From Antedon mediterranea (taxonomy: Eukaryota; Animalia; Echinodermata): a stretch of DNA of 64,000 nucleotides. The notes beneath the pieces were generated by a model. The model was not told where the DNA came from. It saw only the letters and a program-made list of their open reading frames with translations, and made no database searches. Shown here in pieces: positions 300-63,445 of this stretch (position 1 is its first letter; every line of letters begins with the position of its first letter). Position numbers and translations under genes: made by a program. The stretch spans positions 18,055,237 to 18,119,236 of the forward strand of contig NC_092672.1 in assembly GCF_964355755.1 (NCBI RefSeq), written 5' to 3'.

Positions 300-1360
300 A
301 AAGTTAAAAGTGAATTTCTCGCCGTCGCCATTCCAGAATCGAATGCGTTCGATCTTCATGACAATGACAATGATTCTTTATTTCTTTATCGACCCTTTTT
401 CAGGGTATGAAAGAACATTCTTTCAATCTTATACAGAAACAAACTAAACACTTCCAGACATAAATATTTGGTCTTAAACATAATTGATGATATATCGAAA
501 AGCAACATCTAACTAAAACAAATACAAAATATTATGAATAAATTTAGCTAAGTTTGATATTTTTTGGGGGAGATCTGGTATTAGAAACGACAGAAACAGA
601 CACGGTGGTGGTGTTCTGATAGCATGCAAAAATTCCATAGATGTAATACCTGTGGACATTGACACAAATATTGAGATTCAACTGGCTGAAATCCGAAACT
701 CGAAACATCCGAATAAAATGTATAAGTGGAAAAAATACAGAAAATTTAGTAACGCATTGCGTGAAACTACGAGAAAGTCTCATTATGATTACGGTACCTC
801 CATAATCTTAGTTTAGGCTGTAAATTTAATCCTAAACGATTTTGGTCATATGTTAAGAAAAAACGAAAATGTGCAACAGAAAGAAAGTATATTTACACGG
901 CAATATCATAGATTCAGATTTAAATGCTACTAAAGCATTTTCGATATATTCTCAGTCTAATTTTACTGAAGATAATGATGATTTCAATGTAAGAAACGAA
1001 ACATCTTATTGTAATCACAGTGAAATTGTCTTACCTTTAACTAGTATTTTCATCAATAGGGATCCAATGTTCCGTGCCCTGTTATCTTTAGATACTAATA
1101 AATCCCCTGGACCCGATGGGATTACCCCTATGATGTTGAGTATGGCTGCACCTGTTGTATCCACAATTTTGCTTAAGATTTTTCAAATGTCCCTTGACCA
1201 AGGCATTGTGGTGAAGGAATGGAAATTGGCCAATGTTGTGCCAATTTTTGTTGGTAAAGTTCTAGAACGTATTGTGGCTGATAATTTTTTATTTCATCTT
1301 CAATGTAATGCGTTTGTTAGTCCTGTACAGCACGGGTTCTATCCTGGAAGATCTTGTGTT
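300..1360 (+). mobile_element. Degenerate CR1/L2-type LINE ORF2, 5' part (endonuclease remnant and RT N-terminus)
   Basis: RNDRNRHGGGVLIA at ~580-625; KSPGPDGI, WKLANVVPIF and QHGFYPGRSC in ORF 869-1390; 5' limit approximate. Confidence 0.85.
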
Positions 1361-2520
1361 AGTAGTATAGTTCCCCGTTCAGTCCAATGAATAATTCATA
1401 AATTAATTAATGAATATTAATATATTAATTATGAGTGTACTATTTATGAATAATTAATTAGGGGGTAGTTTTATGAATATTTAATAATTAAAATGGTATT
1501 ATTTTTTAATAAATGAATAAATTAATTTGTTTAGCGATCTCAGTCCAATGAAGAAGTAATAAGATGTTTTAATATTCATGAATATTAATATATTTTTATT
1601 AATATGAGGGGTGTTTTAATGAATAATTAGTAAATGAGTGATAGTTTTACGTATAATTTTTAAACGTAATACATGTATTACATGATGTTTAAATAAATAT
1701 TTACATTTAAATATTAAAGACAATGTGCTTACCTTCATTGAGAAGTCTGATGTACAGTTTAATGAATAAAATCCACAAGTTTAATCAGCTTTGATTACTG
1801 TTTTTTATGTTTGTATAAGGAATCATAACATCAATTCGCTGTCTTTCCATGGAATTAGTTTACATGTGAGGCGTGGACAGGTCATTTTTTGTAATTCTGT
1901 GATTTTAGCGGGTATGTGACGTCATCCGGCAATGAACCAATAAGATTCCTTATAAGCATAATGCTAATGAAATTAGAATTCGTTGTCCTTGTTGAGATAT
2001 TCAAAGATATTAAAAGTTATTTAATTATTTTATTAGTTTTTTATCCTTTTGTTTTTTCGTTTAGTTAAATAACCGCATTATTTTTTAAGGGTATTCCTTC
2101 AATATATAAAGATGGTAATAAATAAATAAATAAATAAAAATTAAAAATAATGTGCTTACCTTCATTGAGAAGTCTGATATTATAGTATATTTTAATGAAT
2201 AAAATCTACAAGTTTAATCAGCTTTGATTACTGCTTTTTTTATATGTTTGTATAAGAACAAAATCATAACATCAATCCGCTGTCTATTTTTTCAAATCCT
2301 GTGATTTTAGAGGGTATGTGACGTCATCAGGCAATGAACCAATAAGATTCCTTATAAACATAGTGCTAATGAATTAATCTACCAATCATAATTCGTTGTT
2401 TTTGTAAGCGTAGCGATCTCAGTCCAATGAATAAGTAATGAGATGTTTTAATATTCGATCGTGAATATTAATATATTTTTATTAATATGAGAGTGTTTTA
2501 ACGAATACTTAGTAATTGCG
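1361..2520. repeat. Left terminal region with internal direct duplications (probable original TIR)
   Basis: AT-rich ATGAATA-rich end; ~1533-1640 repeated at ~2411-2520; ~1722-1990 repeated at ~2149-2400; inner limit of the original TIR cannot be fixed. Confidence 0.6.
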
Positions 2521-2704
2521 TTGGTATTTATTCTATGAATTATTGAATTAAGTATGATATATGTAAATTGTTTTATTTTTAACACGGTACCTGATTTACT
2601 ATATATATATACAGATTGTTAATTTGAAAACAGTACAGTTTTCCTGCTTTAGATTTTTAACATTTAGTCATCTGTTCTTTATCCTGCTGTTATTATCTAT
2701 CAGG

Positions 2705-3397
2705 ATGAATTCTACTCAAAATCAATCCGGTAGTAAGAGAGTTTTTTCTTCTTCAAAAGGACAGAGTCCTGTATCTAATCGAGTAAAGATACACAAAGTT
2801 TCACATCAACACGGCACAGCAGTACCTTCAAATTGTATGACGTGTTTAATGGCGATTCAACCTCCACCTCCAATGAACGTTGATTTCAATAATGTATCTA
2901 ATACTGAAGAAGACGAACATTATAGATCGAGAATAATTTCTGAAGAGGAGAGGATTGTATACGACGACACGTCATCGGTAGTTGACTACCACCTATTTCT
3001 GGCAAGAAAATCCGATGTAGAAGATGAGGTAGAAGATGAGGTGTTTGCAGAAGAGTACCTGAACCCTGTGCTGGAGGCGGAGATTAAGAAAGAAACTACC
3101 GAACTTGAGTACAAAGAAATAATGAGAACAATTGAGAAGGTTTTCATAGAAGAATTTATGTTCATTCTGAAGGACATGGTTGAACGTTATAACTTTCACG
3201 GCTCAAGATATGAACAACTCTTAACATTTTTTCGACCAATTCTGGCATTGAAACTTGTGGACAATAGCGCTACCCATTTTGAATGGGCGCTAAACTACTT
3301 TCATTTACGTTGTATCAATGTTGATGCGTTCGATAAAGCCATAAAGTTGATTACAAATGATTCAGAGCTTTTTAATAAGATTCTTTACCAATTGTAA
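2705..3397 (+). CDS. Orphan Polinton cargo protein, ~230 aa (acidic middle, helical C-terminus), left copy
   Basis: Open frame from first ATG 2705 (the track starts at TTG 2624); TATA-like run at ~2599-2611; duplicated in the right arm with 2 aa changes; no family recognised. Confidence 0.6.
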   Translation: MNSTQNQSGSKRVFSSSKGQSPVSNRVKIHKVSHQHGTAVPSNCMTCLMAIQPPPPMNVDFNNVSNTEEDEHYRSRIISEEERIVYDDTSSVVDYHLFLARKSDVEDEVEDEVFAEEYLNPVLEAEIKKETTELEYKEIMRTIEKVFIEEFMFILKDMVERYNFHGSRYEQLLTFFRPILALKLVDNSATHFEWALNYFHLRCINVDAFDKAIKLITNDSELFNKILYQL

Positions 3398-3652
3398 TTT
3401 GTACAAATTTAAAATAATATCTTAACACTTTTTTAATTAATGTTACATAATTTTATAATTCTTATTTCTTTTCGGTAAATTTATTATTATTATGGTTATA
3501 ATTTATATTGAAATAGAATGCGTGTTAAAATAAAGGTTGTGTTTTTTTCTTTTAAAAGCAACAACAACAAAAATGAAATTTGATCTTTGCGTGTTATTTA
3601 AGTATTTGATTTATTTTTTTAATTTTCATTTGGGTGAATGAGGGTAATGAAT

Positions 3653-3876
3653 ATGGATGAGTACTTAAGAAAAGTATATTAAGATCCTAAGCATCCTGAT
3701 AGTTTTGGTGGTGTGGACCGACTTTATCAAAATGTAAAAGACGATTTAAATATTACCAAGAGACAAGTTCAAGACTGACTGAACAAGCAATACATTACAC
3801 ACATCCATACAACGTAAATTCAAACAAAACTGGGTACTTGTAAGTGCTATTGATGAACAATAGGGAATGGATTTGG
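3653..3876 (+). pseudogene. Polinton integrase N-terminal remnant, left copy
   Basis: MDEYLRKVY*DPKHPDSFGGVDRLY...ITKRQVQD*LNKQ then RKFKQNWVLVSAIDEQ*GMDL, resembling the Polinton integrase YYDP..SFGG / WL..Q / IDEQWQADL region; contains stops. Confidence 0.8.
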
Positions 3877-4060
3877 AAAAATAACGTGTATAAAATTTGA
3901 TTCAGACAAACTGTTTGCAAAATCAAAGGTTTGACTCTAGATTTCCAAAAATCAAAGGAAGTCAATTTTGAAATAGTTGGTAGCATGGTACGAGGAATCG
4001 GACTGGAAAAAATAACAACAACTAATCCTAACAAAATAACCCGTAAACCAAAATCTCACT
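3877..4060 (+). pseudogene. Protein-primed family B DNA polymerase C-terminal remnant, left copy
   Basis: KNNVYKI*FRQTVCKIKGLTLDFQKSKEVNFEIVGSMV...NPNKITR resembles the Polinton pPolB KNY..CKxKGITL..INF..NP.KI.R tail. Confidence 0.7.
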
Positions 4061-5151
4061 TAATATTTATTTTGTATTATAAATTTGTAAAAGTAGTTAC
4101 CCTATTTTAATTCATGGTAAATTTATTTTTCGAATTAATTTAATTTGTTTTATTTTCTGTTGAATTTTTATTATTATTATGTTTGTAAAGTGTATTGCAA
4201 TAGATTTGTTTAATAAAATAAATTAATTATGTTTTGACTTAATTTATGTCAGTGTAAATTTGTAAAAGTAGTTTTCCTATTTTAATTCATGATAAGTTTA
4301 TTTCTTGACTTTACTTAATTTTTTTCTTTTCTGTTGAAGTAGAATGTGTATTGAAATACATTTTGTTTTTAACATCAACAACAAAAAATGAAATTTTATC
4401 TTTGCGTGTTGTTTAATTCGTGTATGATGTTTTTCTAATTTATTTAAAAAAAAAAAAAAAAAAGAAAACAAGTTTTTGAATTTGTTAAATGTAATTGCAA
4501 ACATACAAAATAAATGATTGCGATTAAAAATTATATTTTGTAAAGTGTATTACAATAGAATGTGTATTGAAATACATTTTGTTTTTAACGTCAACAACAA
4601 AAATGAAATTTGATCTTTGCGTGTTGTTTAACTCGTGTATGAAGTTTTTGAATTTGTTAAATGTAATTGCAAACATACATATTAAATGATTGTGATTAAA
4701 AATATTCTGTTTACTTTTTATTTTTTATTTTAAACAGTAGTATTTTTAACAGTAGTTATATTTTATATATAATAAGTAATATTACAAAAATAAACATACA
4801 AAATGTATAAAGTATAGACTTATTAAATTTAAATACAATTTCTTTTTTTCAAAATGAATTTCATTTTATACGTGTTTTCAATTTTAAATCTTTTAAGAAA
4901 GACACAATACGTACTGATATAAAAACGCACACAAAAGGAAACAAATTTGAGACGCACGGTTTGTAACGACACTTTCAATAAGAAGGCATATTATAAATGT
5001 ATTTTTACAAAATTTATAAAGTAAATGTTTATTATTGAGAAATATACATTTTAGATAAATGATAACACATCTAAAAGTAATTAGAGAGATCAATACAATA
5101 TGGTGTTCATAATAATTTGTTTTGATGACTAGACGAAACATCTGAAGACAT

Positions 5152-5716
5152 TCAACGAAAAACAAGCGTTAACACCATACCAGTCACTAAAAATGCCACT
5201 GCTTTGAAAAAAACATCTCCCTTCCTACACAGAGACAAATTCTGAACGAAAATAATAAATAAAAATAATTAGTAAACAAAACACGCGCATTATAAATAAA
5301 ATGAATAATTTAAGAATATTTGTTAAACTACCCACGAACAAAAAACGAAACATACTAACCGACTCATCGTCATTACGAAGTTCAAATAACGAAAACTTTT
5401 CCTTGAAAAATCCACAGGAGACACGTTTTACATTTTCTAACTGCAATTCAGTGTCACATTGTGTCGCAACACATGTACATACAACGAGTCCTGTCACAAG
5501 TCTGCCGACGTTTATTTTTCTATCGCTCATCATTTGTTCTAATACATAATACAGCGCTTCCAAAGAAATATCTTTACACAATTCTAACACATTAAAATTG
5601 TTTTCCAACTCTTTACAAGCACGAATAGTACTCTGGAGGATGGGTGAATCCAAAACAACTAACCCCGTCAATTTATATTCAATGTATGCTAAAACTACTT
5701 CCTCTAAATCAACCAT
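5152..5716 (-). CDS. Bcl-2-like protein, spliced (exons 5716-5360 and 5241-5152), 148 aa, left copy
   Basis: Mirror of 7140-7704; BH4-like EEVVLAYIEYKL, BH3-like IRACKELE, BH1-like EQMMSDRKINVGRLVT, C-terminal TM in exon 2. Confidence 0.7.
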
Positions 5717-6251
5717 AACGCTCGACAAAACAAATGATAATGGATGTAATTACCAAGAAAGTTACAACTTAAAACCTTTATTTTTGTTTTTAAAAGAAGT
5801 TGTAACATAGAAACTAATTTTGTCCGGAAATGTGTTTTTATTATTTATGTGATTTATTTGTGTTTAGAAAGTTACAACATTAACATTTAATTTGGTAAAA
5901 AAATGTGAATAACCCATTGTTCCGACAGAAGCTAATGATATTTACAAAGGATGACACACTTTGAATAGAATAAATACCGTATAACATAATTAAATTTTGT
6001 CAAGATAGTTGTCAAAAATAAATAAAATATATTATACTGAATTTACTTTGTACATTTATTTAATTTAGGCCGTAATTAGGTTTATTGTTCATTTATGATT
6101 GTGAAAAAAAAAAAAAATACATACTAATAAAACAGCATAGGCCTATAAAAAAAGTAAAAAAAAAAATAATGATTCAGTGTTATAATTTTATTTACCTGTC
6201 ATTATGTTAATAAAACATATTTAAATTTAATTTATGTCATGTTAGATATAT

Positions 6252-6466
6252 TTTCAAGGACATTTGTTACATACAAATAATTTTGTAAAGAAATTTGTTA
6301 CATAAGATAAATTTGTTAAGAAGTTTGTTTCATAAAAATATTTGTGAAGATAAATTTGTTACATAAAAATAATTTTGTAAAGAAATTTGTTACAAAAATT
6401 TATTTTTTACAAGAAGTTTGTAACAGAAAATTATTTTGCAAAGAATTAGTTGCATCAATTGATTTT
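6252..6466. repeat. Non-palindromic central spacer made of degenerate TTTGTTACATAAAAATAATTTTGTAAAGAAA-like direct repeats
   Basis: Arm complementarity ends at 6251/6467; repeated TTTGTTAC/TTTGTAA units. Confidence 0.7.
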
Positions 6467-7139
6467 ATATATCTAACATGAAATAAATTAAATTTAAATA
6501 TGTTTTATTAACATAATGACAGGTAAATAAAATTATAACACTGAATCATTATTTTTTTTTTTACTTTTTTTATAGGCCTATGCTGTTTTATTAGTATGTA
6601 TTTTTTTTTTTTCACAATCATAAATGAACAATAAACCTAATTACGGCCTAAATTAAATAAATGTACAAAGTAAATTCAGTATAATATATTTTATTTATTT
6701 TTGACAACTATCTATCAAAATTTAATTATGTTATACGGTATTTATTCTATTCAAAGTGTGTCATCCTTTGTAAATGTCATTAGCTTCTGTCGGAACAATG
6801 GGTTTCTTTTCTTTGATCATGTAGATTTCCAATTTCAATCCATTTCTATATGTCTAATCTGCAATCATTAATTTCCGTTCGCTCTTTTTTTGTTTATAAA
6901 ATCTCTCACTATACTAAGGATTAAAAATTACAATCGGCTCCGTATATTCACATTTTTTTACCAAATTAAATGTTAATGTTGTAACTTTCTAAACACAAAT
7001 AAATCACATAAATAATAAAAACACATTTCCTGACAAAATTAGTTTCTATGTTACAACTTCTTTTAAAAACAAAAATAAAGGTTTTAAGTTGTAACTTTCT
7101 TGGTAATTACATCCATTATCATTTGTTTTGTCGAGCGTT

Positions 7140-7704
7140 ATGGTTGATTTAGAGGAAGTAGTTTTAGCATACATTGAATATAAATTGACGGGGTTAGTTG
7201 TTTTGGATTCACCCATCCTCCAGAGTACTATTCGTGCTTGTAAAGAGTTGGAAAACAATTTTAATGTGTTAGAATTGTGTAAAGATATTTCTTTGGAAGC
7301 GCTGTATTATGTATTAGAACAAATGATGAGCGATAGAAAAATAAACGTCGGCAGACTTGTGACAGGACTCGTTGTATGTACATGTGTTGCGACACAATGT
7401 GACACTGAATTGCAGTTAGAAAATGTAAAACGTGTCTCCTGTGGATTTTTCAAGGAAAAGTTTTCGTTATTTGAACTTCGTAATGACGATGAGTCGGTTA
7501 GTATGTTTCGTTTTTTGTTCGTGGGTAGTTTAACAAATATTCTTAAATTATTCATTTTATTTATAATGCGCGTGTTTTGTTTACTAATTATTTTTATTTA
7601 TTATTTTCGTTCAGAATTTGTCTCTGTGTAGGAAGGGAGATGTTTTTTTCAAAGCAGTGGCATTTTTAGTGACTGGTATGGTGTTAACGCTTGTTTTTCG
7701 TTGA
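7140..7704 (+). CDS. Bcl-2-like protein, spliced (exons 7140-7496 and 7615-7704), 148 aa, right copy
   Basis: ATG 7140; BH4/BH3/BH1-like motifs; donor GTTAGT 7497, branch-like TACTAAT 7582, acceptor TTCAG 7614; exon 2 reads NLSLCRKGDVFFKAVAFLVTGMVLTLVFR* (tail anchor). Confidence 0.7.
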
Positions 7705-8795
7705 ATGTCTTCAGATGTTTCGTCTAGTCATCAAAACAAATTATTATGAACACCATATTGTATTGATCTCTCTAATTACTTTTAGATGTGTTATCATTTA
7801 TCTAAAATGTATATTTCTCAATAATAAACATTTACTTTATAAATTTTGTAAAAATACATTTATAATATGCCTTCTTATTGAAAGTGTCGTTACAAACCGT
7901 GCGTCTCAAATTTGTTTCCTTTTGTGTGCGTTTTTATATCAGTACGTATTGTGTCTTTCTTAAAAGATTTAAAATTGAAAACACGTATAAAATGAAATTC
8001 ATTTTGAAAAAAAGAAATTGTATTTAAATTTAATAAGTCTATACTTTATACATTTTGTATGTTTATTTTTGTAATATTACTTATTATATATAAAATATAA
8101 CTACTGTTAAAAATACTACTGTTTAAAATAAAAAATAAAAAGTAAACAGAATATTTTTAATCACAATCATTTAATATGTATGTTTGCAATTACATTTAAC
8201 AAATTCAAAAACTTCATACACGAGTTAAACAACACGCAAAGATCAAATTTCATTTTTGTTGTTGACGTTAAAAACAAAATGTATTTCAATACACATTCTA
8301 TTGTAATACACTTTACAAAATATAATTTTTAATCGCAATCATTTATTTTGTATGTTTGCAATTACATTTAACAAATTCAAAAACTTGTTTTCTTTTTTTT
8401 TTTTTTTTTTAAATAAATTAGAAAAACATCATACACGAATTAAACAACACGCAAAGATAAAATTTCATTTTTTGTTGTTGATGTTAAAAACAAAATGTAT
8501 TTCAATACACATTCTACTTCAACAGAAAAGAAAAAAATTAAGTAAAGTCAAGAAATAAACTTATCATGAATTAAAATAGGAAAACTACTTTTACAAATTT
8601 ACACTGACATAAATTAAGTCAAAACATAATTAATTTATTTTATTAAACAAATCTATTGCAATACACTTTACAAACATAATAATAATAAAAATTCAACAGA
8701 AAATAAAACAAATTAAATTAATTCGAAAAATAAATTTACCATGAATTAAAATAGGGTAACTACTTTTACAAATTTATAATACAAAATAAATATTA

Positions 8796-9203
8796 AGTGA
8801 GATTTTGGTTTACGGGTTATTTTGTTAGGATTAGTTGTTGTTATTTTTTCCAGTCCGATTCCTCGTACCATGCTACCAACTATTTCAAAATTGACTTCCT
8901 TTGATTTTTGGAAATCTAGAGTCAAACCTTTGATTTTGCAAACAGTTTGTCTGAATCAAATTTTATACACGTTATTTTTCCAAATCCATTCCCCATTGTT
9001 CATCAATAGCACTTACAAGTACCCAGTTTTGTTTGAATTTACGTTGAATGGATGTGTGTAATGTATTGCTTGTTCAGTCAGTCTTGAACTTGTCTCTTGG
9101 TAATATTTAAATCGTCTTTTACATTTTGATAAAGTCGGTCCACACCACCAAAACTATCAGGATGCTTAGGATCTTAATATACTTTTCTTAAGTACTCATC
9201 CAT
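8796..9203 (-). pseudogene. Fused integrase N-terminal / pPolB C-terminal remnant, right copy
   Basis: Mirror of 3653-4060; keeps IDEQWGMDL (TGG) where the left copy has TAG. Confidence 0.75.
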
Positions 9204-9458
9204 ATTCATTACCCTCATTCACCCAAATGAAAATTAAAAAAATAAATCAAATACTTAAATAACACGCAAAGATCAAATTTCATTTTTGTTGTTGTTGCTT
9301 TTAAAAGAAAAAAACACAACCTTTATTTTAACACACATTCTATTTCAATATAATTTATAACCATAATAATAATAAATTTACCGAAAAGAAATAAGAATTA
9401 TAACATTATGTAACATTAATTAAAAAAGTGTTAAGATATTATTTTAAATTTGTACAAA

Positions 9459-10151
9459 TTACAATTGGTAAAGAATCTTATTAAAAAGCTCTGAATCATT
9501 TGTAATCAACTTTATGGCTTTATCGAACGCATCAACATTGATACAACGTAAATGAAAGTAGTTTAGCGCCCATTCAAAATGGGTAGCGCTATTGTCCACA
9601 AGTTTCAATGCCAGAATTGGTCGAAAAAATGTTAAGAGTTGTTCATATCTTGAGCCGTGAAAGTTATAACGTTCAACCATGTCCTTCAGAATGAATATAA
9701 ATTCTTCTATGAAAACCTTCTCAATTGTTCTCATTATTTCTTTGTACTCAAGTTCGGTAGTTTCTTTCTTAATCTCCGCCTCCAGCACAGGGTTCAGGTA
9801 CTCTTCTGCAAACACCTCATCTTCTACCTCATCTTCTACATCGGATTTTCTTGTCAGAAATAGGTGGTAGTCAACTACCGATGACGTGTCGTCGTATACA
9901 ATCCTCTCCTCTTCAGAAATTATTCTCGATCTATAATGTTCGTCTTCTTCAGTATTAGATACATTATTGAAATCAACGTTCATTGGAGGTGGAGGTTGAA
10001 TCGCCATTAAACACGTCATACAATTTGAAGGTACTGCTGTGCCGTGTTGATGTGAAACTTTGTGTATCTTTACTCGATTAGATACAGGGCTCTGTCCTTT
10101 TGAAGAAGAAAAAACTCTCTTACTACCGGATTGATTTTGAGTAGAATTCAT
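9459..10151 (-). CDS. Orphan Polinton cargo protein, ~230 aa, right copy
   Basis: Mirror of 2705-3397 with A>T and M>I differences. Confidence 0.6.
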   Translation of the reverse strand: MNSTQNQSGSKRVFSSSKGQSPVSNRVKIHKVSHQHGTAVPSNCMTCLMAIQPPPPMNVDFNNVSNTEEDEHYRSRIISEEERIVYDDTSSVVDYHLFLTRKSDVEDEVEDEVFAEEYLNPVLEAEIKKETTELEYKEIMRTIEKVFIEEFIFILKDMVERYNFHGSRYEQLLTFFRPILALKLVDNSATHFEWALNYFHLRCINVDAFDKAIKLITNDSELFNKILYQL

Positions 10152-11496
10152 CCTGATAGATAATAACAGCAGGATAAAGAACAGATGACTAAATGTTAAA
10201 AATCTAAAGCAGGAAAACTGTACTGTTTTCAAATTAACAATCTGTATATATATATAGTAAATCAGGTACCGTGTTAAAAATAAAACAATTTACATATATC
10301 ATACTTAATTAAATAATTCATAGAATAAATACCAACGCAATTACTAAGTATTCGTTAAAACACTCTCATATTAATAAAAATATATTAATATTCACGATCG
10401 AATATTAAAACATCTCATTACTTATTCATTGGACTGAGATCGCTACGCTTACAAAAACAACGAATTATGATTGGTAGATTAATTCATTAGCGCTATGTTT
10501 ATAAGGAATCTTATTGGTTCATTGCCTGATGACGTCACATACCCTCTAAAATCACAGGATTTGAAAAAAATAGACAGCGGATTGATGTTATGATTTTGTT
10601 CTTATACAAACATATAAAAAAAGCAGTAATCAAAGCTGATTAAACTTGTAGATTTTATTCATTAAAATATACTATAATATCAGACTTCTCAATGAAGGTA
10701 AGCACATTATTTTTAATTTTTATTTATTTATTTATTTATTACCATCTTTATATATTGAAGGAATACCCTTAAAAAATAATGCGGTTATTTAACTAAACGA
10801 AAAAACAAAAGGATAAAAAACTAATAAAATAATTAAATAACTTTTAATATCTTTGAATATCTCAACAAGGACAACGAATTCTAATTTCATTAGCATTATG
10901 CTTATAAGGAATCTTATTGGTTCATTGCCGGATGACGTCACATACCCGCTAAAATCACAGAATTACAAAAAATGACCTGTCCACGCCTCACATGTAAACT
11001 AATTCCATGGAAAGACAGCGAATTGATGTTATGATTCCTTATACAAACATAAAAAACAGTAATCAAAGCTGATTAAACTTGTGGATTTTATTCATTAAAC
11101 TGTACATCAGACTTCTCAATGAAGGTAAGCACATTGTCTTTAATATTTAAATGTAAATATTTATTTAAACATCATGTAATACATGTATTACGTTTAAAAA
11201 TTATACGTAAAACTATCACTCATTTACTAATTATTCATTAAAACACCCCTCATATTAATAAAAATATATTAATATTCATGAATATTAAAACATCTTATTA
11301 CTTCTTCATTGGACTGAGATCGCTAAACAAATTAATTTATTCATTTATTAAAAAATAATACCATTTTAATTATTAAATATTCATAAAACTACCCCCTAAT
11401 TAATTATTCATAAATAGTACACTCATAATTAATATATTAATATTCATTAATTAATTTATGAATTATTCATTGGACTGAACGGGGAACTATACTACT

Positions 11497-12670
11497 TGTG
11501 TTACACAAGCTTCATCCATATACCACGAATGGTCCAAAATATTAGATGGTACGAACCCACCAGTCGTCGATGCTATATTCCTTGATTGGGAAAAAGCATT
11601 TGACCGTGTGAGTCACCCTAAACTATTACGTAAGCTCCACAATTTTGGTCTATGTGGTCCAATTTTGAAATGGATGGGCTCCTTTCTTACTGATCATTGC
11701 CAACAGATTGTCCTAAATGGACTGATATCTGACCGTACGCCTGTTGTTTCAGGTGTACCTCAATGGTCGGTACTTGGCCCATTACTTTTCAACTCGTTCG
11801 TTTTTTACCTCCCTATGTCGATCAACTCTCAAAATATGACAATATGCCGACGATACGGTGGTGTTTAGGTCAATTAGATGTGAATATGATGCGATATTAC
11901 TTCAAAAAGATCTAGATAACATCGATGAATAACATGATGAGACTTAATGCTAAAAAATGCAAAGTTCTCCATATTACTCGCAAACGTAATCCCATTCATG
12001 CTCGTTATCATATTCACACTAATGACCTTCAGGCAGTTACCTCCTACAAATATCTTGGTATTCACTTTGAAAGCAATCTCTCTTGTCAACGCATGTGTCC
12101 GCAATTACCACAAAATATCTCCAAATTGTCGGATTCATAAAGCGTTTAGTGATATTTAACGACCCTGTAGTTTTGATGAGGCTTTTTAACGGTTTATGTA
12201 GGCCCATACTTGAGTATGCTGCCCCTGTTTGGGTGCCTCATCAAAAACAACATATTACTAGCATAAATAAACCTCTTCGAAGGATCACAAAATTGTGTGC
12301 TAAGGGCGATTACGAGCAACGGCTTGAACATGGACCAGAGAGTGTGTTTTCTCAGTATACTTTTTATTATGAAATGTTTGTATGGTCGAATTGATCTTAA
12401 TATTCATGATTTTAATCCAAGATATTCCGAATCAGTTATTTTTAAACACAAATATGCCAGAACCAATTCTTTTAAATATTCATTGTACACTACTTTTCCC
12501 CGTGTATGGCAAGAGATTCCTAATTATATTAGAGAACATTCTTTATTTAGTTTTAACACATTTGTGACAGCTCTCCGGTCTTATGTCAGGCAACTTTAAA
12601 CTTTTTATTTTTTTATCTTTAAACTATCATTTTTATCTGTACATAATATTTATATATATATATATATATT
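11497..12670 (+). mobile_element. CR1/L2-type LINE ORF2, 3' part (RT core and C-terminus, frameshifted)
   Basis: DAIFLDWEKAFDRVSH, SGVPQWSVLGPLLF, YADD, LNAKKCKV, YKYLGI, RPILEYAAPVW. Confidence 0.88.
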
Positions 12671-12753: not shown

Positions 12754-14471
12754 CGGTTCTAGGACACCTACCCCCTAGACAGTTACCCCCCGGATGTTTA
12801 CCACCCGGACAACTACCCCCTTAGGACAACTACCCCCCGGACAACTACCCCCCGGACAACTACCCCCTTAGGACAACTACCCACTTAGGATAACAACCCC
12901 CCGGACAACTACCCCCCGGACAACCACCCCCTTAGGACAACTACCCCCTTAGGATAACTACCCCCCGGGTAACTACCCCCCCGGTCAACTACCCCCCGGT
13001 CAACTACCCCCGGTCAACTACCCCCCCCCCCCCCCCCCCATCCAAAAGTAGACAAATATATAGGACCGGTTTCTGTAAAAATGAAATCATCTGTTTTTAA
13101 CGGGTGTTTCGAAACTAGAGACCCGAGACCAGAGACCTGACACGAGACCCAATACGAAAAGGGAGACCTATATTTGGGTCTCCCTTTTCGTATATTAGGG
13201 TCTCCCTTTTCGTCTAGTGTGGTCTCTCTTTTCGTATAGTGGGGTCTCCCTTTTCTTATAGTGGAGTCTCCCTTTTCTTATAGTGGGTCTCCCTTTTCGT
13301 ATATTTGGGTCTCCCATTTTGTATATTTGGGTCTCCCTTTCGTATAACTGGGTCTCCCTTTTCGTATATTTAGGTCTCCCTTTTCGTATATTAGGGTCTC
13401 CCTTTTCGTATAGTGGGGTCTCCCTTTTCGTATAGTAGGGTCTCCCTTTTCGTACGTGGGTCTCCCTTTTCGTATATTTAGGTCTCCCTTTTCGTATTGG
13501 GTCTCTGGTCTCTGGTCTCGGGTCTCTAGTTTCGAAACACCCGTTTTTAACCGATTATTCTGTTTAACAGCACGCTAGACCCTAGATGCGCTAGATTTAA
13601 AGTACCGTATTTAATGAAAAAACGGCCTGGGCTGTTTATTGTTTAGGTGGTTTTTAGGTGGACATTTATTGGAAGAAAGTTGTTTATTCAATGGGAGGGG
13701 GTATAATCTAATGGAAATAGACGCCGATTATTCCATATGATGTTTCATGGGAGTGACATGGTCACCGTTTATTTGAGGGGAATTTATTTAAAGATCGACG
13801 TTTATTCGGTGAGTGAACATTGAGGTCAAATATCAAAAGTGATATTATTCTTCAAGTGTACAAAAATACATATAATTATGACAAATTTGAGACAAAAATT
13901 AATTCTTTTAAGACCAGTAGTTATCGAAGCATTGTCCTGACGCAAAAATTATTATTATTAGCGAACCCAGTCTTTACAGTAAATACAGGGAGTACTATAT
14001 AATACGTTCGACTATCCTATTATCATGTGTGACAATCTTCAGTTTATACCAGGCTATATTTATGTTCAATCTTTTACTTTTGTTTACAATGGTGAATAGT
14101 AATTCGTCAAAGTAACGAATTAAAATATAGTTATTAATTCCTATTATACACTGTTGCAGAGTCAGGTTGTTGAATGGTCTGGGTGGTTAGGGTGTTCTAA
14201 AGGGATAGTTTTCTGGGTGGTAATTGTCCGGGGGGTAATTGTCCGGAGGGTAATTGTTCCTAGGGGGTAATTGTCCGGGGGGTAGTTGTCCAGGGGGTAG
14301 TTGTCCTAAGGGGGTTGTTGTCCTAAGGGGGTAGTTGTCCGGGGGGTATTTGTCCGGGGGGTAGTTTTCCTAAAGGGGTAGTTGTCCTAAGGGGGTAGTG
14401 GTCCAGGTGGTGGTTGTCCGGGGGGTAGTTGTCCGGGGGGTAAATGTCCAGGGGGTGAATATCCGGATACG
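12754..14471. mobile_element. Foldback-type non-autonomous DNA element with inverted arrays of GGACAACTACCCCC subterminal repeats
   Basis: C-rich array 12760-13040 mirrored by G-rich array 14200-14460; TSD not resolved. Confidence 0.65.
13102..13542. mobile_element. Mutator (MuDR)-type MITE nested in the foldback element
   Basis: TIR GGGTGTTTCGAAACTAGAGACCCGAGACC; 9-bp TSD GTTTTTAAC (13093-13101, 13543-13551); internal GGGTCTCCCTTTTCGTATA repeats. Confidence 0.8.
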
Positions 14472-14966: not shown

Positions 14967-17900
14967 TTATATTATCATAATCTTATTTCTTAAAGCTACC
15001 CATTTTTCTATACTTGTTTCTTTATTGTTATATGTTTCACATTCAATGTTATATAACATATTGCTTTTAAATGAATTCCATAAAGATTTACCCACTGGCT
15101 TATTTAGTGCAGATAACATTTTTATTCTATAAATAGTAAATGCTGCAAAAGTGTAAATATAATCTATTAGCTTATCTCCCGTTCCTAGTATTAATTGTTT
15201 AAATGATATATTATTGTGATTTAAACTTACAAAGATACTAAGCATTTTCCTCCAATATTTCTGAATAAATCTACAACTAAAAAACAAATGATTTTCATTT
15301 TCAATTTCTCCACATTTGTCACACGTTTGTGTTTCCTTAACTTTCCACTGATACAGCCGTTTGTTGGTAGGCAGTATTCTATGTAACATCTTATAATTGA
15401 ATTGTGCTAGTTTCTTATCTTTCATTTTACATACTTTCCGTAACCAAGAAGTTTTCCAATCAATGTTGTTATCATTGAAGTACTCTTCCCATTTTAGTTG
15501 TGACATTGGAATAATGAAATATTCTTTCACAAACCATGAGTATATTAGTTTGGTAGTATTAATCTCATACTTGGTCCCAACTAATTCATCATTATCATCA
15601 CAATTGAAAATATCTACCTCCTTAATAATACGTTTCCATTGAATTGGTATTGCCTTAATAATGCACAAATACTCATTTAACCAGTTTGTTTTACATTGTA
15701 GTTTCACCAGTATTTCGTTTGATGTTAAAAAAGTGTTCTTATTAACAATGTCTTTAATACTGATAATGCCACTGTCAATCCAATGCTTGTAGAAAAGCGA
15801 TTTTTTTTTTTAGTTTAACGTAGTGGTTTCCCCACAGTTGCTCATTCATTATATCGTTATAAGTTTCAGGGTTTTTTTTAGAGATTCTGTTATAATTTAT
15901 GTAGGCTTTTATCATATTTTTGTAAAACAGTGGAATTTTATCAGAATTAACATCAATAATGTTATAACATGACATATTAAGTAAAACATTAACATCACAT
16001 ATTTTTTTAATATAATACATTGGAATATTTTTCCATTTAGCACCATCATCATTCATAATTCTTTTTAACCAGCCACACATGAGTGCGTTAACATGAAGAG
16101 TAAAATCAGGCATTTTAATGCCTCCCATCTCAACATCACCAATTAGAGTTTTTCTTTTTATCTTTTCCCTTTTATTGTTCCAAATAAAATTATATATTAG
16201 ATTTGTAACTTGTGTATATACATATTTTGGAACATCAGTGATATTTGCAGCATATGTTAATTTAGATAGTGCAAGAATTTTCAGGATTATTATTCTACCA
16301 AAAATTGAGAGATTTCTAGCATTCCATTGTTTTAAAGTCTTTTCTAGCTCTATTAATTTAACATCCCAGTTTTTTCTGGTACATTCTTCTGTATTATATC
16401 CTACATATATGCCTAAAATTTTGATCGGGTGTTTTACCCAATTTAATTCTAAAGGTCTATCTATTCTGTTCTTCCATTTACCAATCCAAAAAGCATTGGT
16501 TTTTTTTTTTATTTAGTGTCATTCCAGATACTTCACAAAAACGTTCAATTACACTGACTGCTGACTTAATACTTTTGTCATTACCAACATACAAAACAGT
16601 ATCATCGGCTAATTGGCTTATTCTAGCTTCTATGTTATTTTCATTATTTGGAAGTTTAATACCCTTATAGTCATCTTTGTTTCTTATTCTAGATGCCATT
16701 ACTTCAACCACTAAAATGAATAACAGAGCAGATAGAAGACAACCTTGTCTAATACCTCTTTCCATTTTAAAATTGTTTGAAACCCAACCATTGTTAACTG
16801 TGACACATTCAACGTTATTGTATAATACTTTTACCCAGTTACAAAAGAACATTCCAAAGTTAAACTTTTCTAGAACATTGAACATAAAATCTCTACTAAT
16901 AGAGTCAAAAGCCTTCTTAAAATCTACGGTAATTATTGCCCCTTCGATATCATTACACTCTGTATAATAAAGCAGGTCTTCTATTAACCGAATGTTTTCA
17001 CCAGCGAAACGGCCTTTTATATAACCTTTTTGGTCTGAACTTACTATTGATTTAATAACCATTTTAAGTCTGTTACTTAATACATGTGCAAGAATTTTGT
17101 AATCGGTGTTTAAGAGGGTAATGGGACGCCAATTATTCAAATTTTCTCTTTCTCCATCCTTGAACAAAAGGGTGATTACACCTCGTTTTTGCGAAAAGGA
17201 TAATTCTTGAGAATTATAACTTTCATTTAACGCATCGCAAATTAAATGTTTAATATTATTCCAAAAGAACACATAAAATTCAACACTTAGACCATCCGAT
17301 CCAGGTGTTTTATTTTTTTCCATCATTGAAATGGCCTTTTTACATTCATCAATAGTGACGTAACCTTCACAATTTTCTTTTTCTATTTCTGAAAGCTTGT
17401 TTATAGTAGAATTACAAAGGTATTTATTAATTTTTCCAGGGTTTATAACATTTTTTGCGTATAAACCTTCGAAATGTTGTATTTGTTCCTTTAAGATATC
17501 AATTGGGCTCGTTGCTAAGCTCCCATCTTTAGTAATTAAACTTTTTATGTGTTTCTTTTTACTTTTGGATCTTTATAACCCAAGAAAGTATTTTGTATTC
17601 CGCTCGCCTTCCTCTATCCATTTTACTCTGGACCTAATTTGCGCGCCTTTTGCTTCTACATTATAAATGTTTTCAAGCTCTATTTTTTTGTTTTCAATTT
17701 TATTTTCAATGGTTATATCACAATTTTGAGTATTCATAATTGTTTCATTTAAGTTTTTTATTTGTTTTTGTAATTTTTCTTTCTTTTTATTCTGGTTTTT
17801 ATTTTTTTGTTTTCCGTATGCAATTGAAAATTCTTTTATTTTTGTTTTTACAAGCTCCCATAACAAACTTGCACTTACAGGTTCTCTATTATTTTTTAGT

Positions 17901-18730
17901 ATTGAAACATCAATTATTTTAATTACTAATTTTGTAAATGTTTCATCTTTCAGAAAGCTATTGTTGAACATCCATAAACCAGGACCGCGTATTTTTTCAT
18001 GCAAATCTATTTTAATTGATACCGCCTGGTGATCTGTGAGAATGGCTGGACGAATGTCACAGGCTAAAACATCTCCATTTGAAAAGAGATCTTCTGATAT
18101 TAACCAGTAATCCAGCCTACGGAAAATGTTGTTAAATCTCTTACGCCACGTAAATTGTCGCTTATTCATGTTTTTGGATCTCCAAATATCATTTAAATTT
18201 AAATTTTTCATTAGGTTTTTAATCGTAAAAACAGATTTATCAGACCTATTTGCGCTACCTTTTTGGTCAATGTCACTATTCATGATGCAATTCAGATCTC
18301 CACCTAGAATGATAGAATTACCCTTCCCTCCATCAAAGTCATTGTAACATTTGTGTATGGTCCTAAAGAATGCACTTCTATTTTTGCTTTCATTAGGAGC
18401 ATAAATATTTATAATGTCCAATTCCTTTTCATTTATCATTAAATTAAGAAATATATATCTTCCATCAATATCAGTTAACTTTTTAACAATTTTGCATTCA
18501 AGACCTTTTCGTAATAGTATCGACACTCCTCTACTATGTGAATTACCTATACTATGGATCGCTTCACCTTCCCAAACAAAGTTTGATTTATTAATAATCT
18601 CATTTGTTAGATGGGTTTCCTGAAGCAGACATATATCCGCTTTTTGATCTTTTACCCATTGGAATAGCTTATGTTGCTTATTTATATTTCTAGCTCCTCT
18701 AACGTTTAGTGTTATACAATGTAAATTCAT
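14967..18730 (-). pseudogene. Tx1/L1 ORF2 (APE endonuclease, RT, zf-RVT) with one in-frame stop and two homopolymer frameshifts
   Basis: TLNVRG, LQETH, GGDLN, RLDYWL, TDH; KTPGSDG, WRPITLLN, DFKKAFD, QLADD; CDKC...HLFFSC; TAA at 17573-17575; shifts at ~16505 and ~15805. Confidence 0.9.
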
Positions 18731-18795
18731 AAGATTAGAGTAAAGAGCTTCCTAGGGAAATTACAATATTTAGAATACATATTATTAAGATTAAA

Positions 18796-20121
18796 TTACT
18801 TGTTTTTGTTTCTCTTTCTTAAACTTCTTTTTTCAATACTCTTTGTTTTTTCTTCTGTCCTGCCTTCATTTCCGGACTGTTCCTTCAGATCTCTCGCTGC
18901 TTTCTTGTTTGTGCTAACACTTTTACTTTTTTGCATACTTTTTTCAAAGTAGTCAGTTACCTTCTTCTGTTCATGCTCCTCTCTTTCCCCAACTTCCTGC
19001 TCCTCTCTTTCTTCAGCTTTCTGGTACTTTCTTCCCGGTACTTCTTGTTCCTCTCCTTCTTCAACTTCCTCCTCCTCTCTTTCGTCCACTTCCTGCTCTT
19101 CTCTCTGCTCCTCTCTGTCATCATCTTTCTGCTCATTTTGGTTTGTGTGTTGTTCTATAGTGATCACACTTGTTTCTTTCTGCGCATTTTCATCATCTGA
19201 TGATTCACTACTTCCATCAATACTAAACACTTCATCATGTGTTTCTGTATCAGATTGTACCGTAGCTCTTTTCCCGTAGTGGTTATCGTTAGCATTACTA
19301 TTTTTTGGGTTTTCAAAGTTAAAAACCGATTCCCAAACTTTATTAATGTATGCACCAGGTGAACCAGATGATGATACATTATGCGCTTCAACATTACATC
19401 TGTCCCTAGTATGCCCTGGTAAATGACACTTGAAACAGATTATATCAGCTTTGCATTGAAAAGCTAAATGCCCAGTCTTTGTACATTTGTTGCATTTCAC
19501 TTCCTGACCGTCATGAAAAGCCCGTGCTCTAAAACCATTTATTATTATCTGTCTTGGTATAGGCGATTTTAGCTTTTCTACAACGACAGCTCTGTCACCG
19601 TTTAGCCAGCTGGTTAATTGGCCATTAACCCTTATTTTTAGCCTTGTAACATCTCCTATTGGTTTGCATCCTAGCGCTTTCAACTTGCTAGCAATCTCTA
19701 CGTCAGCAACCGATAATGGTATATCCTTTATGACTATTCTCGTTGTTTCCATGTTGTTGTATGCCAAATAAGGATTTTTATCATGAATTGTAATATTACA
19801 ATTCCTAATGTTTAGTCCATTCGTAATTAGTTTCACTCTATCATTTCTATTATTTAGATAAATTCGCCATAGGTTCCGTATTTTTTGAACACCTATTATA
19901 CTTTCTGCAGCAATTATTTTTAGTAGGGCTATACATAGGTCTTCATCTTTGAAAAAGCTTTTTCCTGTTGGTATTTGATCAGCCTTCAAAAAGATTGGCT
20001 TCACTACACTACGTTCTTTGTTTACTGTTTGCCCGTTCATCCTGCTGATTTCGTCACCGTCAGCCTGTGCAGCACTGTACATTCCTTTGTTAGTCCCGTT
20101 TCTATGGGTTTTTGACGCCAT
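18796..20121 (-). CDS. Tx1/L1 ORF1 gag-like protein with two CCHC zinc knuckles
   Basis: 441 aa; CNKCTKTGHLAFQC and CFKCHLPGHTRDRC; acidic C-terminus. Confidence 0.88.
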   Translation of the reverse strand: MASKTHRNGTNKGMYSAAQADGDEISRMNGQTVNKERSVVKPIFLKADQIPTGKSFFKDEDLCIALLKIIAAESIIGVQKIRNLWRIYLNNRNDRVKLITNGLNIRNCNITIHDKNPYLAYNNMETTRIVIKDIPLSVADVEIASKLKALGCKPIGDVTRLKIRVNGQLTSWLNGDRAVVVEKLKSPIPRQIIINGFRARAFHDGQEVKCNKCTKTGHLAFQCKADIICFKCHLPGHTRDRCNVEAHNVSSSGSPGAYINKVWESVFNFENPKNSNANDNHYGKRATVQSDTETHDEVFSIDGSSESSDDENAQKETSVITIEQHTNQNEQKDDDREEQREEQEVDEREEEEVEEGEEQEVPGRKYQKAEEREEQEVGEREEHEQKKVTDYFEKSMQKSKSVSTNKKAARDLKEQSGNEGRTEEKTKSIEKRSLRKRNKNK

Positions 20122-22649
20122 TGTTTGGCTTTCACCGGGCTTAGACGTGAACGATATACAAATTGTTTTTTCCTAGTATTTCTTTCAGGTAAAAACTTCC
20201 ACCTTAACAAAGACTTGGTTTAACTTGACTTATTCACTATATTATACTCACTTAGAAATCAATCGAGATTTAGAAAACGTCAAATTTTAACCGTATTTCA
20301 GGAGCTGTAATAAACTATACCTTGGTTAAGTAAAATCACAACGCCCGGAGATTACTCTTTGCTAACCATTTTTTATTAAAATTATCGAAATCATTTTTTT
20401 TTTGTCTTGTGTGGGGTTGTCCCACTTTTATTATAATTCTGTGTTTTATATGTATATATATATATATATATTATATATATAAAAACAAAGGTACATTTGT
20501 AACAATTAATTATTTGCATGAATATTTCTCTTTCTATTGTATATTACTACGATTTTTACAGTGTTAAAAGTAGTTAAATTGCAGGCATATTTACATAAAA
20601 AGATGATTGATTTCAATATAAAACCATATGCTTTCATTTACAATCTTAAAAAAGATGGTAATTAAAATATAAAGATAAAACATGGTAATAAAATTCTGTG
20701 AACTGTCATTGAAATCGTTCTTATAAAATCTTGTTCATGTTCGGGCAGAGAGGCTATAAACTCAGAGAAGGCGTATAAAATATCATCCCTTTTCACCCAG
20801 ACAAAAAGGATGAGATGAAAAAAGATGAATGCAAAAGTTTGAAAACTAGATAATAAGGATGATAGCATAGGATGATATTTAAATGAAAACCCTAAGCACT
20901 GTGCAAGTCCAAGATGCCAATTTGGCTCTGTGTGCATGTGAGACGCTTCATACCCGATGTCATCTTATTATAATACTACTTCAGTGTACAAAAAAAAACA
21001 ATATTGCATTTTAGAAAATATGAAAAAACACTTCATACAAATTATATTCATGCTATCAATTGTAGCAGAGTTTCTTTTTTTGCACCCCATTTACGTTGTG
21101 TCTTAATTAAGTTACACATAATATGTTCATTTTCTAATAGATTTTTAACTTCAGCAGTGAAAAGAATCCAGATCTTTTTTTTATCATCTTTATCATTTCT
21201 TCCAGCTTTGGATATTATGTGTACCTTGTATATACAGAATAAAAACAGAGAAATCAATTCATTTACAATATTGTTTTTTGTTCCTGTAACAATTTTAAAC
21301 TAAGTAATATTATCTTCAGCTGGAAAGCAAACAGCCAGCACATCTTTAAATTTGTGCCATGTCCATTGAATGGCATTGCATTCAAACAGCATGTGTTGTT
21401 CACTTTCTATCTGATTTATACAATTGTCACATAAATTGTTTTCTGCTAGATTCCATAGTTTTAATCTTTTTTTACACGGTAATATTCGATGTAGGAGTTT
21501 AAAGTTGAATTGAGCAACTTTACTATATGTTTCATCTTGTATACCTTATAATACCATACTTTATTCCAATCTATTTCTACGTTATTTAGCTCACATTCCT
21601 ATTTTTTTTTTGTGAACCTGGTTCACTGGAACAGTTGTTTATAAATATTTATAGTAGATAGATCCTTTAATGTTCGTATGCAACAATGAATCATTATTGC
21701 CTACATCTTGATTATTTGTATTGTCTTTTCTAATAATTTCTTTCCACTCATTTGGTATGGCATTCATAAGCTGTAAATATTCAATTAAATCATTATGTTT
21801 TTTATACAAATTTGAAATTATTTCCCCTGCAGTACATACTCTATCATTTATAAATATATCACCAATTGTTTTATAATCAGAATATAACCATGATTTGAAG
21901 TACAATGATTTATTGTTAGATAATATAAACTTATTTTCCCATAATTGCTGATTTTTTATTTCTATTAAAGTTGTTGGTTTTGGATACACAATATTATTAA
22001 ATTTTACTACAGCATTAATCATGTTCTTGTAGAATGTAGGCATATCTCTCAAGTTAGCATGATCATGTACATTAAGTTTAGTACTTTTTATTGTATATTC
22101 AATTGGGTGAAGGAAATATTTTGGTATGCATTTCCATTTACCTGGATCTGGACCTAACAGTCGCTTGACCCAATTTAGTTTAAGTTATTCAACCACAGAG
22201 CTAACATCTGGCATGTTTAAACCACCTTCTTTAATATTTTTAATTAAGGTTGTTCTCTTTATCTTTTCTCTTCTATTTGTTTAACTATATCTTTTGGAAC
22301 ATCAATTATACTTGCGTTATATATAAACTTACACAAAGCAAGTGTTTTAATAATAGTGATTTTACCAAAAAATGTAAGATTCCTTCTTTTCCATAAGTTT
22401 AATACATTTTCTAGATTGGTAATATTTTTGTCCCAGTTTCTCTTCTCACATAAATGCTTATTGTAACCTACATGGATTCCTAAAAAAGGGTTCACTAGTC
22501 CATGTAATATCTAATGGTCTTGAAACACTATTTTCGTTTTCACCAATCCACATACCATTTGTCTTTTTTCTATTTAATTTTAACCCTGAAACACTACAAA
22601 ATGACTCAATCTCATTCAAGAAATATTTTAAACTACCTTCATCATGTGA

Positions 22650-23440
22650 AACAAGGCCAACAGCCATTAAGTCGCGTGCTACAATGCATAGTGATACCGG
22701 ACCGACAGACCGACAGACAGACCGACAGACCGACAGACAGAGAGACCGACCGACCGACATAGTGAACTATACTGACCGAAATTACTGAACATGTTTAAAA
22801 ATGTTGAAATGTTTAAAAACATTTATTTTTTTAAAATTTACACGTGCGTAGCCTGTCACTTTCGACGTGCTCGTATAACGTAATTTCGAGTTGAAAAGTA
22901 AGTCAAGAAAACAGAAATCGGGCAAAAAGAGTGCGTGATAACATTTAACGCGCAGTGCGCGCGCAAAAATATGCGCACTCATGGCAATTTTGTAAACGCT
23001 TAAAATTGCCTGAAATGTACTCTTATTTCATCGAAAATAAATTTTGAAAATGTTAAGCGCGCGTACGCATGCGTTACATGCGCTACGCACGTAATTGTAT
23101 TGCCATATGATGATTTATGCCCTGAAATTTATGAGTACCAAATTTTATTTAATTGTGATTCATGGTTGTGAAGATATGATTACAAATCGTGCGTAGACCG
23201 CGTAATTTTTTATTGCGCACCGTGAAAACATAACCACATTGATTCCTGGCCATAAGGAATATACTGTGAAAAATTGACCTAGCTAGATTAAACTGATATC
23301 AAGATAAGGTCAGAAAGCGATAAAACGCATAGTGATACCGGACCGACAGACAGACAGACAGACCGACAGACCGACAGACAGACAGACAGACCGACCGACC
23401 GACATAGTGAACTATAGAGTCGCTTCCACGCGACTAAAAA
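22650..23440 (-). mobile_element. Non-autonomous Helentron-like (DINE-1/HINE-type) element, copy 1
   Basis: 5' TTTTTAGTCGCGTG, sub-TIR GTCGCGTG/CACGCGAC, (CTGT/CGGT)n microsatellites, 3' hairpin GGCTGTTGGCC then TTGTT; inserted in a T-run. Confidence 0.72.

Positions 23441-35975: not shown

Positions 35976-63445
<27,470 letters not shown>

Follow-up and report, generated by a model that had tools for sequence, protein, structure and literature searches.

We describe a palindromic derivative of the Polinton/Maverick transposons in the echinoderm Antedon mediterranea which carries, in each of its two arms, a Bcl-2-like gene predicted to consist of two exons, the second encoding a hydrophobic tail anchor. 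The element lies in a stretch of 64,000 nucleotides (contig NC_092672.1 of assembly GCF_964355755.1, positions 18,055,237 to 18,119,236; hereafter the window), and all coordinates below are those of the window. The account towards which we lean, with some reserve, is that a host pro-survival gene was captured as DNA and that its product, likely a tail-anchored inhibitor of apoptosis, has been kept by a helper-dependent satellite. The gene and its mirror copy are laid out as follows:

7140..7496, plus strand: exon 1 of the Bcl-2-like gene, 119 codons, helices 1-6, with Bcl-2 homology (BH) motif BH1 as N69-V70-G71-R72
7497..7614, plus strand: predicted phase-0 intron, 118 nt, starting some two codons beyond the exon boundary that host Bcl-2 genes have at BH2
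7615..7704, plus strand: predicted exon 2, 29 codons and a stop, hydrophobic tail anchor
7823..7828, plus strand: candidate polyadenylation signal AATAAA, weak because position 7828 differs in all four runs (see below)
5360..5716, minus strand: exon 1 of the mirror copy
5242..5359, minus strand: predicted intron of the mirror copy
5152..5241, minus strand: predicted exon 2 of the mirror copy

The interval 7140-7704 is the reverse complement of 5152-5716, letter for letter, as expected from an earlier reading of the window (the sequence-only reading) that had described two identical, divergent copies flanking the centre. That reading had also called the gene duplicated. Two identical copies are indeed present, but they are a by-product of the whole-element palindrome and not of a gene duplication, and since the second copy is simply the other arm it provides no evidence for dosage selection. 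The predicted spliced product is 148 amino acids (aa) long (119 + 29, joined in phase 0), whereas the unspliced frame runs for 163 aa to a stop at 7629-7631; the translations agree with the earlier description of an open reading frame (ORF) that reads through an intron and of a spliced 148-aa product with a hydrophobic tail. In a chance control, ORFs of at least 119 aa arose in 3 of 300 shuffled arms. The gene is also covered by contigs that are ~95-98% identical to it in four sequencing runs from four organism labels.

On all tests together it is very probable that the product has a Bcl-2 fold, as the sequence-only reading had proposed, with no single test being decisive. The sole Pfam match of exon 1 was to PF00452 (E 1.2e-4, below the curated cut-off; residues 36-100 on profile positions 15-79). 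Among the language-model neighbours in the Atlas, a Bcl-2 cluster ranked first (0.94, 223 of 256 shared features, recognition 2377; PF00452 on 30% of its members), the next clusters were poxvirus Bcl-2-like (0.92) and E1B-19K/Bcl-2 (0.90), and all ten of the best family matches fell in the same family or clan. The link to adenovirus E1B-19K drawn earlier extends, on the present data, no further than this neighbour relation. The only sequence match in the PDB was the fowlpox Bcl-2 protein FPV039 (E 0.18), whose BH1 aligns with N69-V70-G71-R72. When a single-sequence structure model, made for exon 1 only and of low confidence, was compared with 48,161 chains, Bcl-2 proteins took the first six places (Z 6.2-6.7, root-mean-square deviation 4.1-5.2, 102-113 residues aligned) and 15 of the best 50 listed, and Foldseek placed Bcl-2 family members at all of ranks 1-13. 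As a control, the model of an equally helical 230-aa ORF from the same element drew Bcl-2 proteins in 0 of its best 50 rows.

Searches for closer relatives of the protein were negative. None of 47 candidates was related in a search of 5.8 billion proteins, none of 13 and none of 457 stretches was related in viral and metagenome contigs, respectively, and there were no relatives in phages, NCBIfam or PHROGs. None was found in 63 Polinton-integrase loci (tblastn and phmmer, 963 frames; best E 0.11-0.52), there was no Bcl-2 Pfam match among 62 selected of 306 ORFs listed from Polinton-integrase loci, and Foldseek with the weak exon-1 model against viral structures returned nothing below E 0.4.

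Three of the four residues of the BH1 motif NWGR are kept (N69, G71 and R72), with the Trp replaced by V70, and residues 115-119 read N-D-D-E-S at the place aligned with the BH2 motif GGW; the absence of the Trp and of GGW, both remarked upon in the sequence-only reading, is thus seen in translation and alignment alike. Its assignment of IRACKELE as BH3 fared less well, as these residues are without the Gly-Asp pair of the BH3 consensus, and no clear BH3 was apparent. The predicted exon 2 has a 17-residue hydropathy of 2.14 in a segment which ends one residue before the stop and has basic flanks, in keeping with the tail anchor proposed earlier, conditional on splicing. With respect to ligand binding, the Asn and Arg of BH1 contact BH3 ligands in avipox and cellular proteins (PMC5691656).

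The motif losses bear upon an alternative that we regard as unlikely, namely that the Bcl-2 fold acts outside apoptosis, for example in innate-immune signalling or autophagy, as several poxvirus proteins do. The vaccinia proteins B14, A52, A46, A49 and K7 employ this fold to counter NF-kB, and Beclin 1 is a binding partner of some viral Bcl-2 proteins (PMC5691641 and PMC11209288). Such a role would be compatible with the position of the poxvirus Bcl-2-like cluster as second Atlas set and with the loss of BH2 and the BH1 Trp, but the BH1 N, G and R and the tail anchor are retained and the exons are arranged as in pro-survival genes.

The evidence for the intron is indirect, but we consider it likely that 7497-7614 is spliced out. 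The stretch starts with GTTAGT, has TACTAAT at 7582-7588 and ends with TTCAG, placing the branch A 27 nt before the acceptor. Read in frame, the intron has a flat GC content over codon positions 1/2/3 (0.23/0.23/0.21), unlike exon 1 (0.46/0.28/0.34) and exon 2 (0.45/0.34/0.34). In 2000 dinucleotide shuffles of the sequence following the donor (400 nt), a branch, an acceptor and a tail-anchor exon occurred together 25 times, and the chance of meeting a GTNAGT donor within seven codon boundaries is ~1.5%, the criteria in both cases having been set after seeing the actual case. Among the 12 insertions and deletions (indels) listed, of 14 in all, for the related copies, five are inside the gene and all five are in the intron. 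In addition, each of the four runs has contigs with a changed read-through stop, with the exon-2 frame open. The contigs of the runs, including those of run X11, which is probably DNA, retain the intron. The splice signals, the non-coding base pattern and the confinement of the listed gene indels to this interval all favor the intron at the place where the sequence-only reading had put it.

If there were no intron, the gene would encode a 163-aa read-through protein with a hydrophobic tail of its own. The frame is indeed open through the 118 nt and hydrophobic (17-residue mean 3.1), and no junction read was seen. Nevertheless, we hold this to be highly improbable, as the frame is broken in contigs of runs X5, X10 and X7 (by insertions of 7 nt and 8 nt and by a 1-nt deletion), the stop codon is not conserved and the base pattern is non-coding, while the hydrophobicity may simply be a product of composition in a T-rich intron.

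The position of the predicted intron is informative as to the origin of the gene. Residue 115 of the exon-1 model aligns with Bcl-xL 186, Bcl-2 193, BAX 156 and BAK 175, each of which we take to be the first Gly of GGW, which would place the Trp at ~117 here, and the Pfam offset places the end of the PF00452 profile at residue 121. Based on this alignment and profile end, and on our assumed GGW numbering, the predicted intron, which follows residue 119, falls within about two codons of the conserved BH2 boundary. In animals ranging from sponge and placozoan to mouse, the coding sequence of pro-survival Bcl-2 genes is divided between two exons, of which the first stops at the Trp of GGW in BH2, while the membrane tail is encoded by the second (PMC8998228). 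Because the host pro-survival exon layout is kept here although the motif itself has eroded, it is likely that a host gene of this type was captured as DNA. The earlier description of the product as a viral-type regulator is apt for its short, divergent sequence but not for its exon layout, which is that of host pro-survival genes.

The exon layout also bears on the proposal that the gene encodes a pro-death, Bax/Bak-like addiction toxin with the 230-aa ORF as its antidote. BAK and BAX occupy the top three rows of the second structural alignment, within 1 Z of the pro-survival proteins, and Mavericks of nematodes harboured the forerunner of a toxin-antidote element (bioRxiv 2022.07.12.499685). 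However, the Bax, Bak and Bok genes have 4-6 exons (PMC8998228), compared with two here. The proposed BH3 is, moreover, without the consensus Gly-Asp pair and nothing links the 230-aa ORF to such a system, so we consider this proposal very unlikely.

The element that carries the gene has the following parts (no strand is assigned to the first and last):

1361..11496: non-autonomous Polinton/Maverick derivative, 10,136 bp, ends AGTAGT...ACTACT, ~96% in inverted arms
1355..1360, plus strand: left copy of the target-site duplication, TGTGTT, 6 bp
11497..11502, plus strand: right copy of the target-site duplication, TGTGTT, 6 bp
1361..5911, plus strand: left outer arm, 4551 bp, 12 differences from the right arm
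6945..11496, minus strand: right outer arm, 4552 bp
5911..6804: inner offset palindrome, arms of ~340 bp, 7 differences in 342 columns

The alignment of the outer arms has 12 mismatching positions in 4552 columns. Between the two outward-facing Bcl-2-like genes are the inner palindrome and the unique sequence 6805-6944, and since the 1033-bp centre, which is asymmetric, holds this second palindrome, ~96% of the element is in inverted arms. A 31-bp tandem array at 6262-6445 sits inside the inner palindrome. The element interrupts a reverse-transcriptase frame which is open on both flanks and which, by its motif, we take to be that of a long interspersed nuclear element (LINE). The AGTAGT-type ends, the inverted repeats and the 6-bp target duplication are in line with Mavericks, in which the ends are (AGT)2//(ACT)2 and the duplicated target site is 6 bp long (PMC8097293). 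Together with the integrase and polymerase relics considered below, they uphold the Polinton context of the sequence-only reading.

The right flank from 11495 onwards is covered without the element by contigs in all four runs, and a loose end in run X1 is left-flank sequence. These contigs fix the boundary of the element but do not show polymorphism, because the flank is a LINE repeat and the contigs may represent other copies of the LINE. The insertion is recent, given that the arms are 99.7% identical. Rfam had no matches within the element, and its terminal 17-mer was not found in the viral_contigs set. As to related copies, one contig of run X10 links 6717 and 9142 on opposite strands, suggesting a rearranged centre, and a form without 8203-8693 is present in X1, X4 and X10.

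Near-perfect inverted repeats can arise in assembly, and no contig spans the element, so the palindrome and the second gene copy might be an artefact. We view this as exceedingly unlikely. The Polinton motif is present at both ends, the flanking 6-bp duplications match, the LINE frame can be followed beyond the element in either direction, there are 12 differences between the arms, and the centre lacks symmetry over its 1033 bp.

Outside the Bcl-2-like genes and the centre, the arms contain the following:

3653..3814, plus strand: N-terminal relic of a Polinton integrase, truncated, with two in-frame stops (mirror at 9042-9203, minus strand)
3904..4047, plus strand: C-terminal relic of a protein-primed DNA polymerase B, 48 codons (mirror at 8809-8952, minus strand)
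2705..3397, plus strand: 230-aa ORF with a coding-type base pattern
9459..10151, minus strand: mirror copy of the 230-aa ORF, differing at 3 codons

The integrase relic (54 codons) has 73% identity over 96% of its length to a PF00665 protein (E 1e-16); no locus was recovered in viral_contigs for either the relic or this relative. For the polymerase relic, tblastn returned matches of 38-45% identity (E down to 1e-6) at the termini of ORFs from Polinton loci; two of these ORFs belong to PF03175. Polymerase B and integrase are thus present as relics of 48 and 54 codons with no intact gene. No capsid, ATPase or protease gene was seen, the only ATG-started ORFs of at least 100 aa in the element being the Bcl-2-like gene, the 230-aa ORF and their mirrors, although smaller relics were not profile-searched. 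Since it combines Polinton ends with core genes that are relics, the element is a non-autonomous Polinton derivative.

No relative or fold was found for the 230-aa ORF: none of 160 candidates in the protein search was related, there was no Atlas match, and its structure model (predicted local distance difference test, pLDDT, 52) had no match above Z 5.3. A resemblance to U2AF65 was rejected as a weak match (E 0.55). The ORF contains a CxxC, a run of prolines and an acidic stretch, its C-terminal half is helical, and upstream of it are three occurrences of a 13-nt motif with CCAAT (1379, 1540 and 2419) and two TGACGTCA sites (1917 and 2319). It is scarcely covered in run X10, which proves nothing. 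In two of the metagenome loci, C2H2 zinc-finger ORFs adjoin Polinton core genes (L013:1738-2319 and L017:1174-1698, both on the minus strand).

Both exons of the Bcl-2-like gene are open in the main contigs of every run, whereas the adjoining integrase and polymerase are relics. A distant paralogue is in frame at 7140-7252 in X1 and X11, which share one organism label, and has the same start codon; in its codons 39-47, compared by eye in loose contig ends, L46 and C47 are kept and the changes at 41, 43 and 44 are conservative. These observations suggest purifying selection on the gene.

A competing explanation sees in the gene a silent or neutral passenger that formerly served an autonomous virus and has stayed intact only through the youth of the family. 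Several observations would fit a passenger: the ratio of non-synonymous to synonymous substitution (dN/dS) is indistinguishable from 1, there is no RNA evidence, the near-identity of the arms points to a recent insertion, and some copies are deleted. Against it, the integrase and polymerase have decayed while the exons have stayed open under four organism labels, the listed gene indels are found only in the intron, and a distant in-frame paralogue exists. We therefore judge the passenger explanation improbable.

In the account we favor, an autonomous ancestor would have acquired, as DNA, a host pro-survival Bcl-2 gene with two exons, and the BH2 intron would have been retained while the captured sequence drifted and GGW was lost. 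A fold-back deletion product of that ancestor may then have shed nearly all core genes and, judging by its ends, would move with integrase and polymerase from intact Polintons, its arms staying alike by the copying of one from the other. The tail of the protein would be inserted in the mitochondrial or endoplasmic reticulum membrane, and a groove lined by N69, G71 and R72 could bind the BH3 helices of host Bax/Bak or BH3-only proteins. Cell death resulting from integration, hairpin DNA or helper-virus activity would be damped, such that carrier germ or stem cells, and with them the element, persist. This would amount to the protection of carrier cells that the sequence-only reading had also inferred.

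A number of results weigh against this account. With regard to the fold, the Pfam check proposed in the sequence-only reading did return PF00452, but at a score of 23 bits compared with a curated cut-off of 31.4. The exon-1 model is weak (pLDDT 42, predicted template modelling score 0.30), no structural match reached Z 8, no Foldseek match had an E of 0.001 or lower, and structural matches to BAK and BAX tie with those to pro-survival proteins. The BH1 Trp and the BH2 GGW are absent, and one mouse Bcl-2 protein whose BH1 is degenerate fails to bind any pro-apoptotic partner (PMC5691656). Taken strictly, the protein falls outside the Bcl-2 family on its Pfam score and on BH2. With regard to the intron, no spliced junction was seen in the run contigs, no run being on record as RNA; AT-rich introns easily gain indels anyway; one X11 contig has two intron insertions which sum to 9 nt and keep the read-through frame; and one low-depth, diverged contig has three gap letters in exon 1. 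With regard to selection, 18 of the substitutions are exonic among the 40 of 77 that were listed, seven synonymous and 11 non-synonymous, with six of the latter in exon 2. The dN/dS check proposed earlier gave an estimate from these listed substitutions of ~0.53, which is below 1 but not different from neutral (p 0.14). Lastly, there are minor copies with deletions through exon 1 (depth 145-292, compared with several thousand in X4, although contig depth was not taken as copy number).

As a wider and more tentative possibility, palindromic Polinton satellites might constitute a selfish class of elements that drop their replication genes but are selected to keep a captured pro-survival Bcl-2 gene with its ancestral BH2 intron. 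Such a gene could serve as a germ-line "survival cassette" that blocks apoptosis, paying the helper virus or biasing cell competition, and an intron that outlasts its motif would record the capture of DNA. If the gene works in the manner we favor, a transposon that is unable to copy itself still invests in the control of host cell death, and the system would make it possible to ask cleanly whether selection on Polinton cargo acts through the carrier cell. The persistence of the BH2 intron would also show the origin of a viral-style Bcl-2 mimic, by DNA capture into a nuclear integrating element followed by erosion.

Further repeats lie elsewhere in the window. A LINE at 14967-20121 (minus strand) has a zinc-knuckle ORF1, an endonuclease and a reverse transcriptase in several frames, and a second, diverged LINE copy is present in pieces at ~21639-25057, with an 800-bp inverted duplication at 22650-24786. 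Nested inverted-repeat elements at 12760-14456, with 15-22-bp tandem subrepeats in their arms, resemble foldback elements or miniature inverted-repeat transposable elements. There are five tandem arrays (29564-29987, 53 bp; 40268-42679, 55 bp; 46684-47807, 53 bp; 58247-59203, ~38 bp; and 63644-64000, 25 bp), several of which are nearly perfect, and an imperfect 500-bp palindrome (76%) at 49164-49666.

The sequence-only reading had called for a check on whether such an accessory gene was new; a Bcl-2 gene in a Polinton or adintovirus was already reported by Starrett et al. (2021; PMC8502044), in which adintoviruses have Bcl2 and IAP homologues and Bcl2 is labelled three times in Fig. S2. Those Polinton-type elements likewise have a Bcl-2-like accessory gene; however, they were mapped with core genes, whereas ours is a palindromic relic without working core genes, and the main text of that paper has no mention of splicing. 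Most mammal-associated adintoviruses are stated to carry anti-apoptotic genes or candidate oncogenes (bioRxiv 2024.03.25.586562). Vertebrate Mavericks have the same ends and 6-bp target duplication, but their inverted repeats are 46-1447 bp long compared with the 4.55-kb arms here, and intact ones have seven or eight intronless core genes rather than relics plus cargo with a predicted intron (Barreat and Katzourakis, 2021; PMC8097293). In insect polintons, genes are also doubled by lying in inverted repeats and copies without polB are mobile, but the repeats are ~2 kb, contain hexon and adenain, and do not form a whole-element palindrome (bioRxiv 2025.02.07.637071). The wasp and krma cargo of nematode Mavericks (Widen et al., bioRxiv 2022.07.12.499685) is similarly host-derived, intron-containing and near a terminal repeat, but consists of proteases and kinases in largely complete elements. 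The planarian transposon Burro/GYPSM1 also has a BCL2-like domain, although it is a long terminal repeat retrotransposon with the domain inside its polyprotein (PMC6431247).

Each of the parts of our element is therefore precedented, but their combination in a whole-element palindrome was not found in print, nor was any publication on a whole-element palindromic Polinton derivative, in a search that had bioRxiv supplements and subscription journals outside its range. Viral Bcl-2 mimics (adenovirus E1B-19K, avipox FPV039/CNP058 and herpesvirus M11) have a short, divergent Bcl-2 fold, as predicted for our protein, and are, to our knowledge, intronless. The term "intron" is absent from two reviews (PMC5691641 and PMC11209288). 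Relative to cellular pro-survival proteins, the predicted protein is much shorter, has 3-13% structural identity, is encoded on a mobile element and is without the BH1 Trp, GGW and a clear BH3, but it shares with them the BH1 N-x-G-R and, according to the model, the overall fold. In addition, the cellular genes (Bcl-2, Bcl-xL, Bcl-w, Mcl-1, A1 and basal-animal homologues) have two coding exons, a boundary at BH2 and a tail in the last exon, which is the arrangement that we predict for the gene in this element (PMC8998228).

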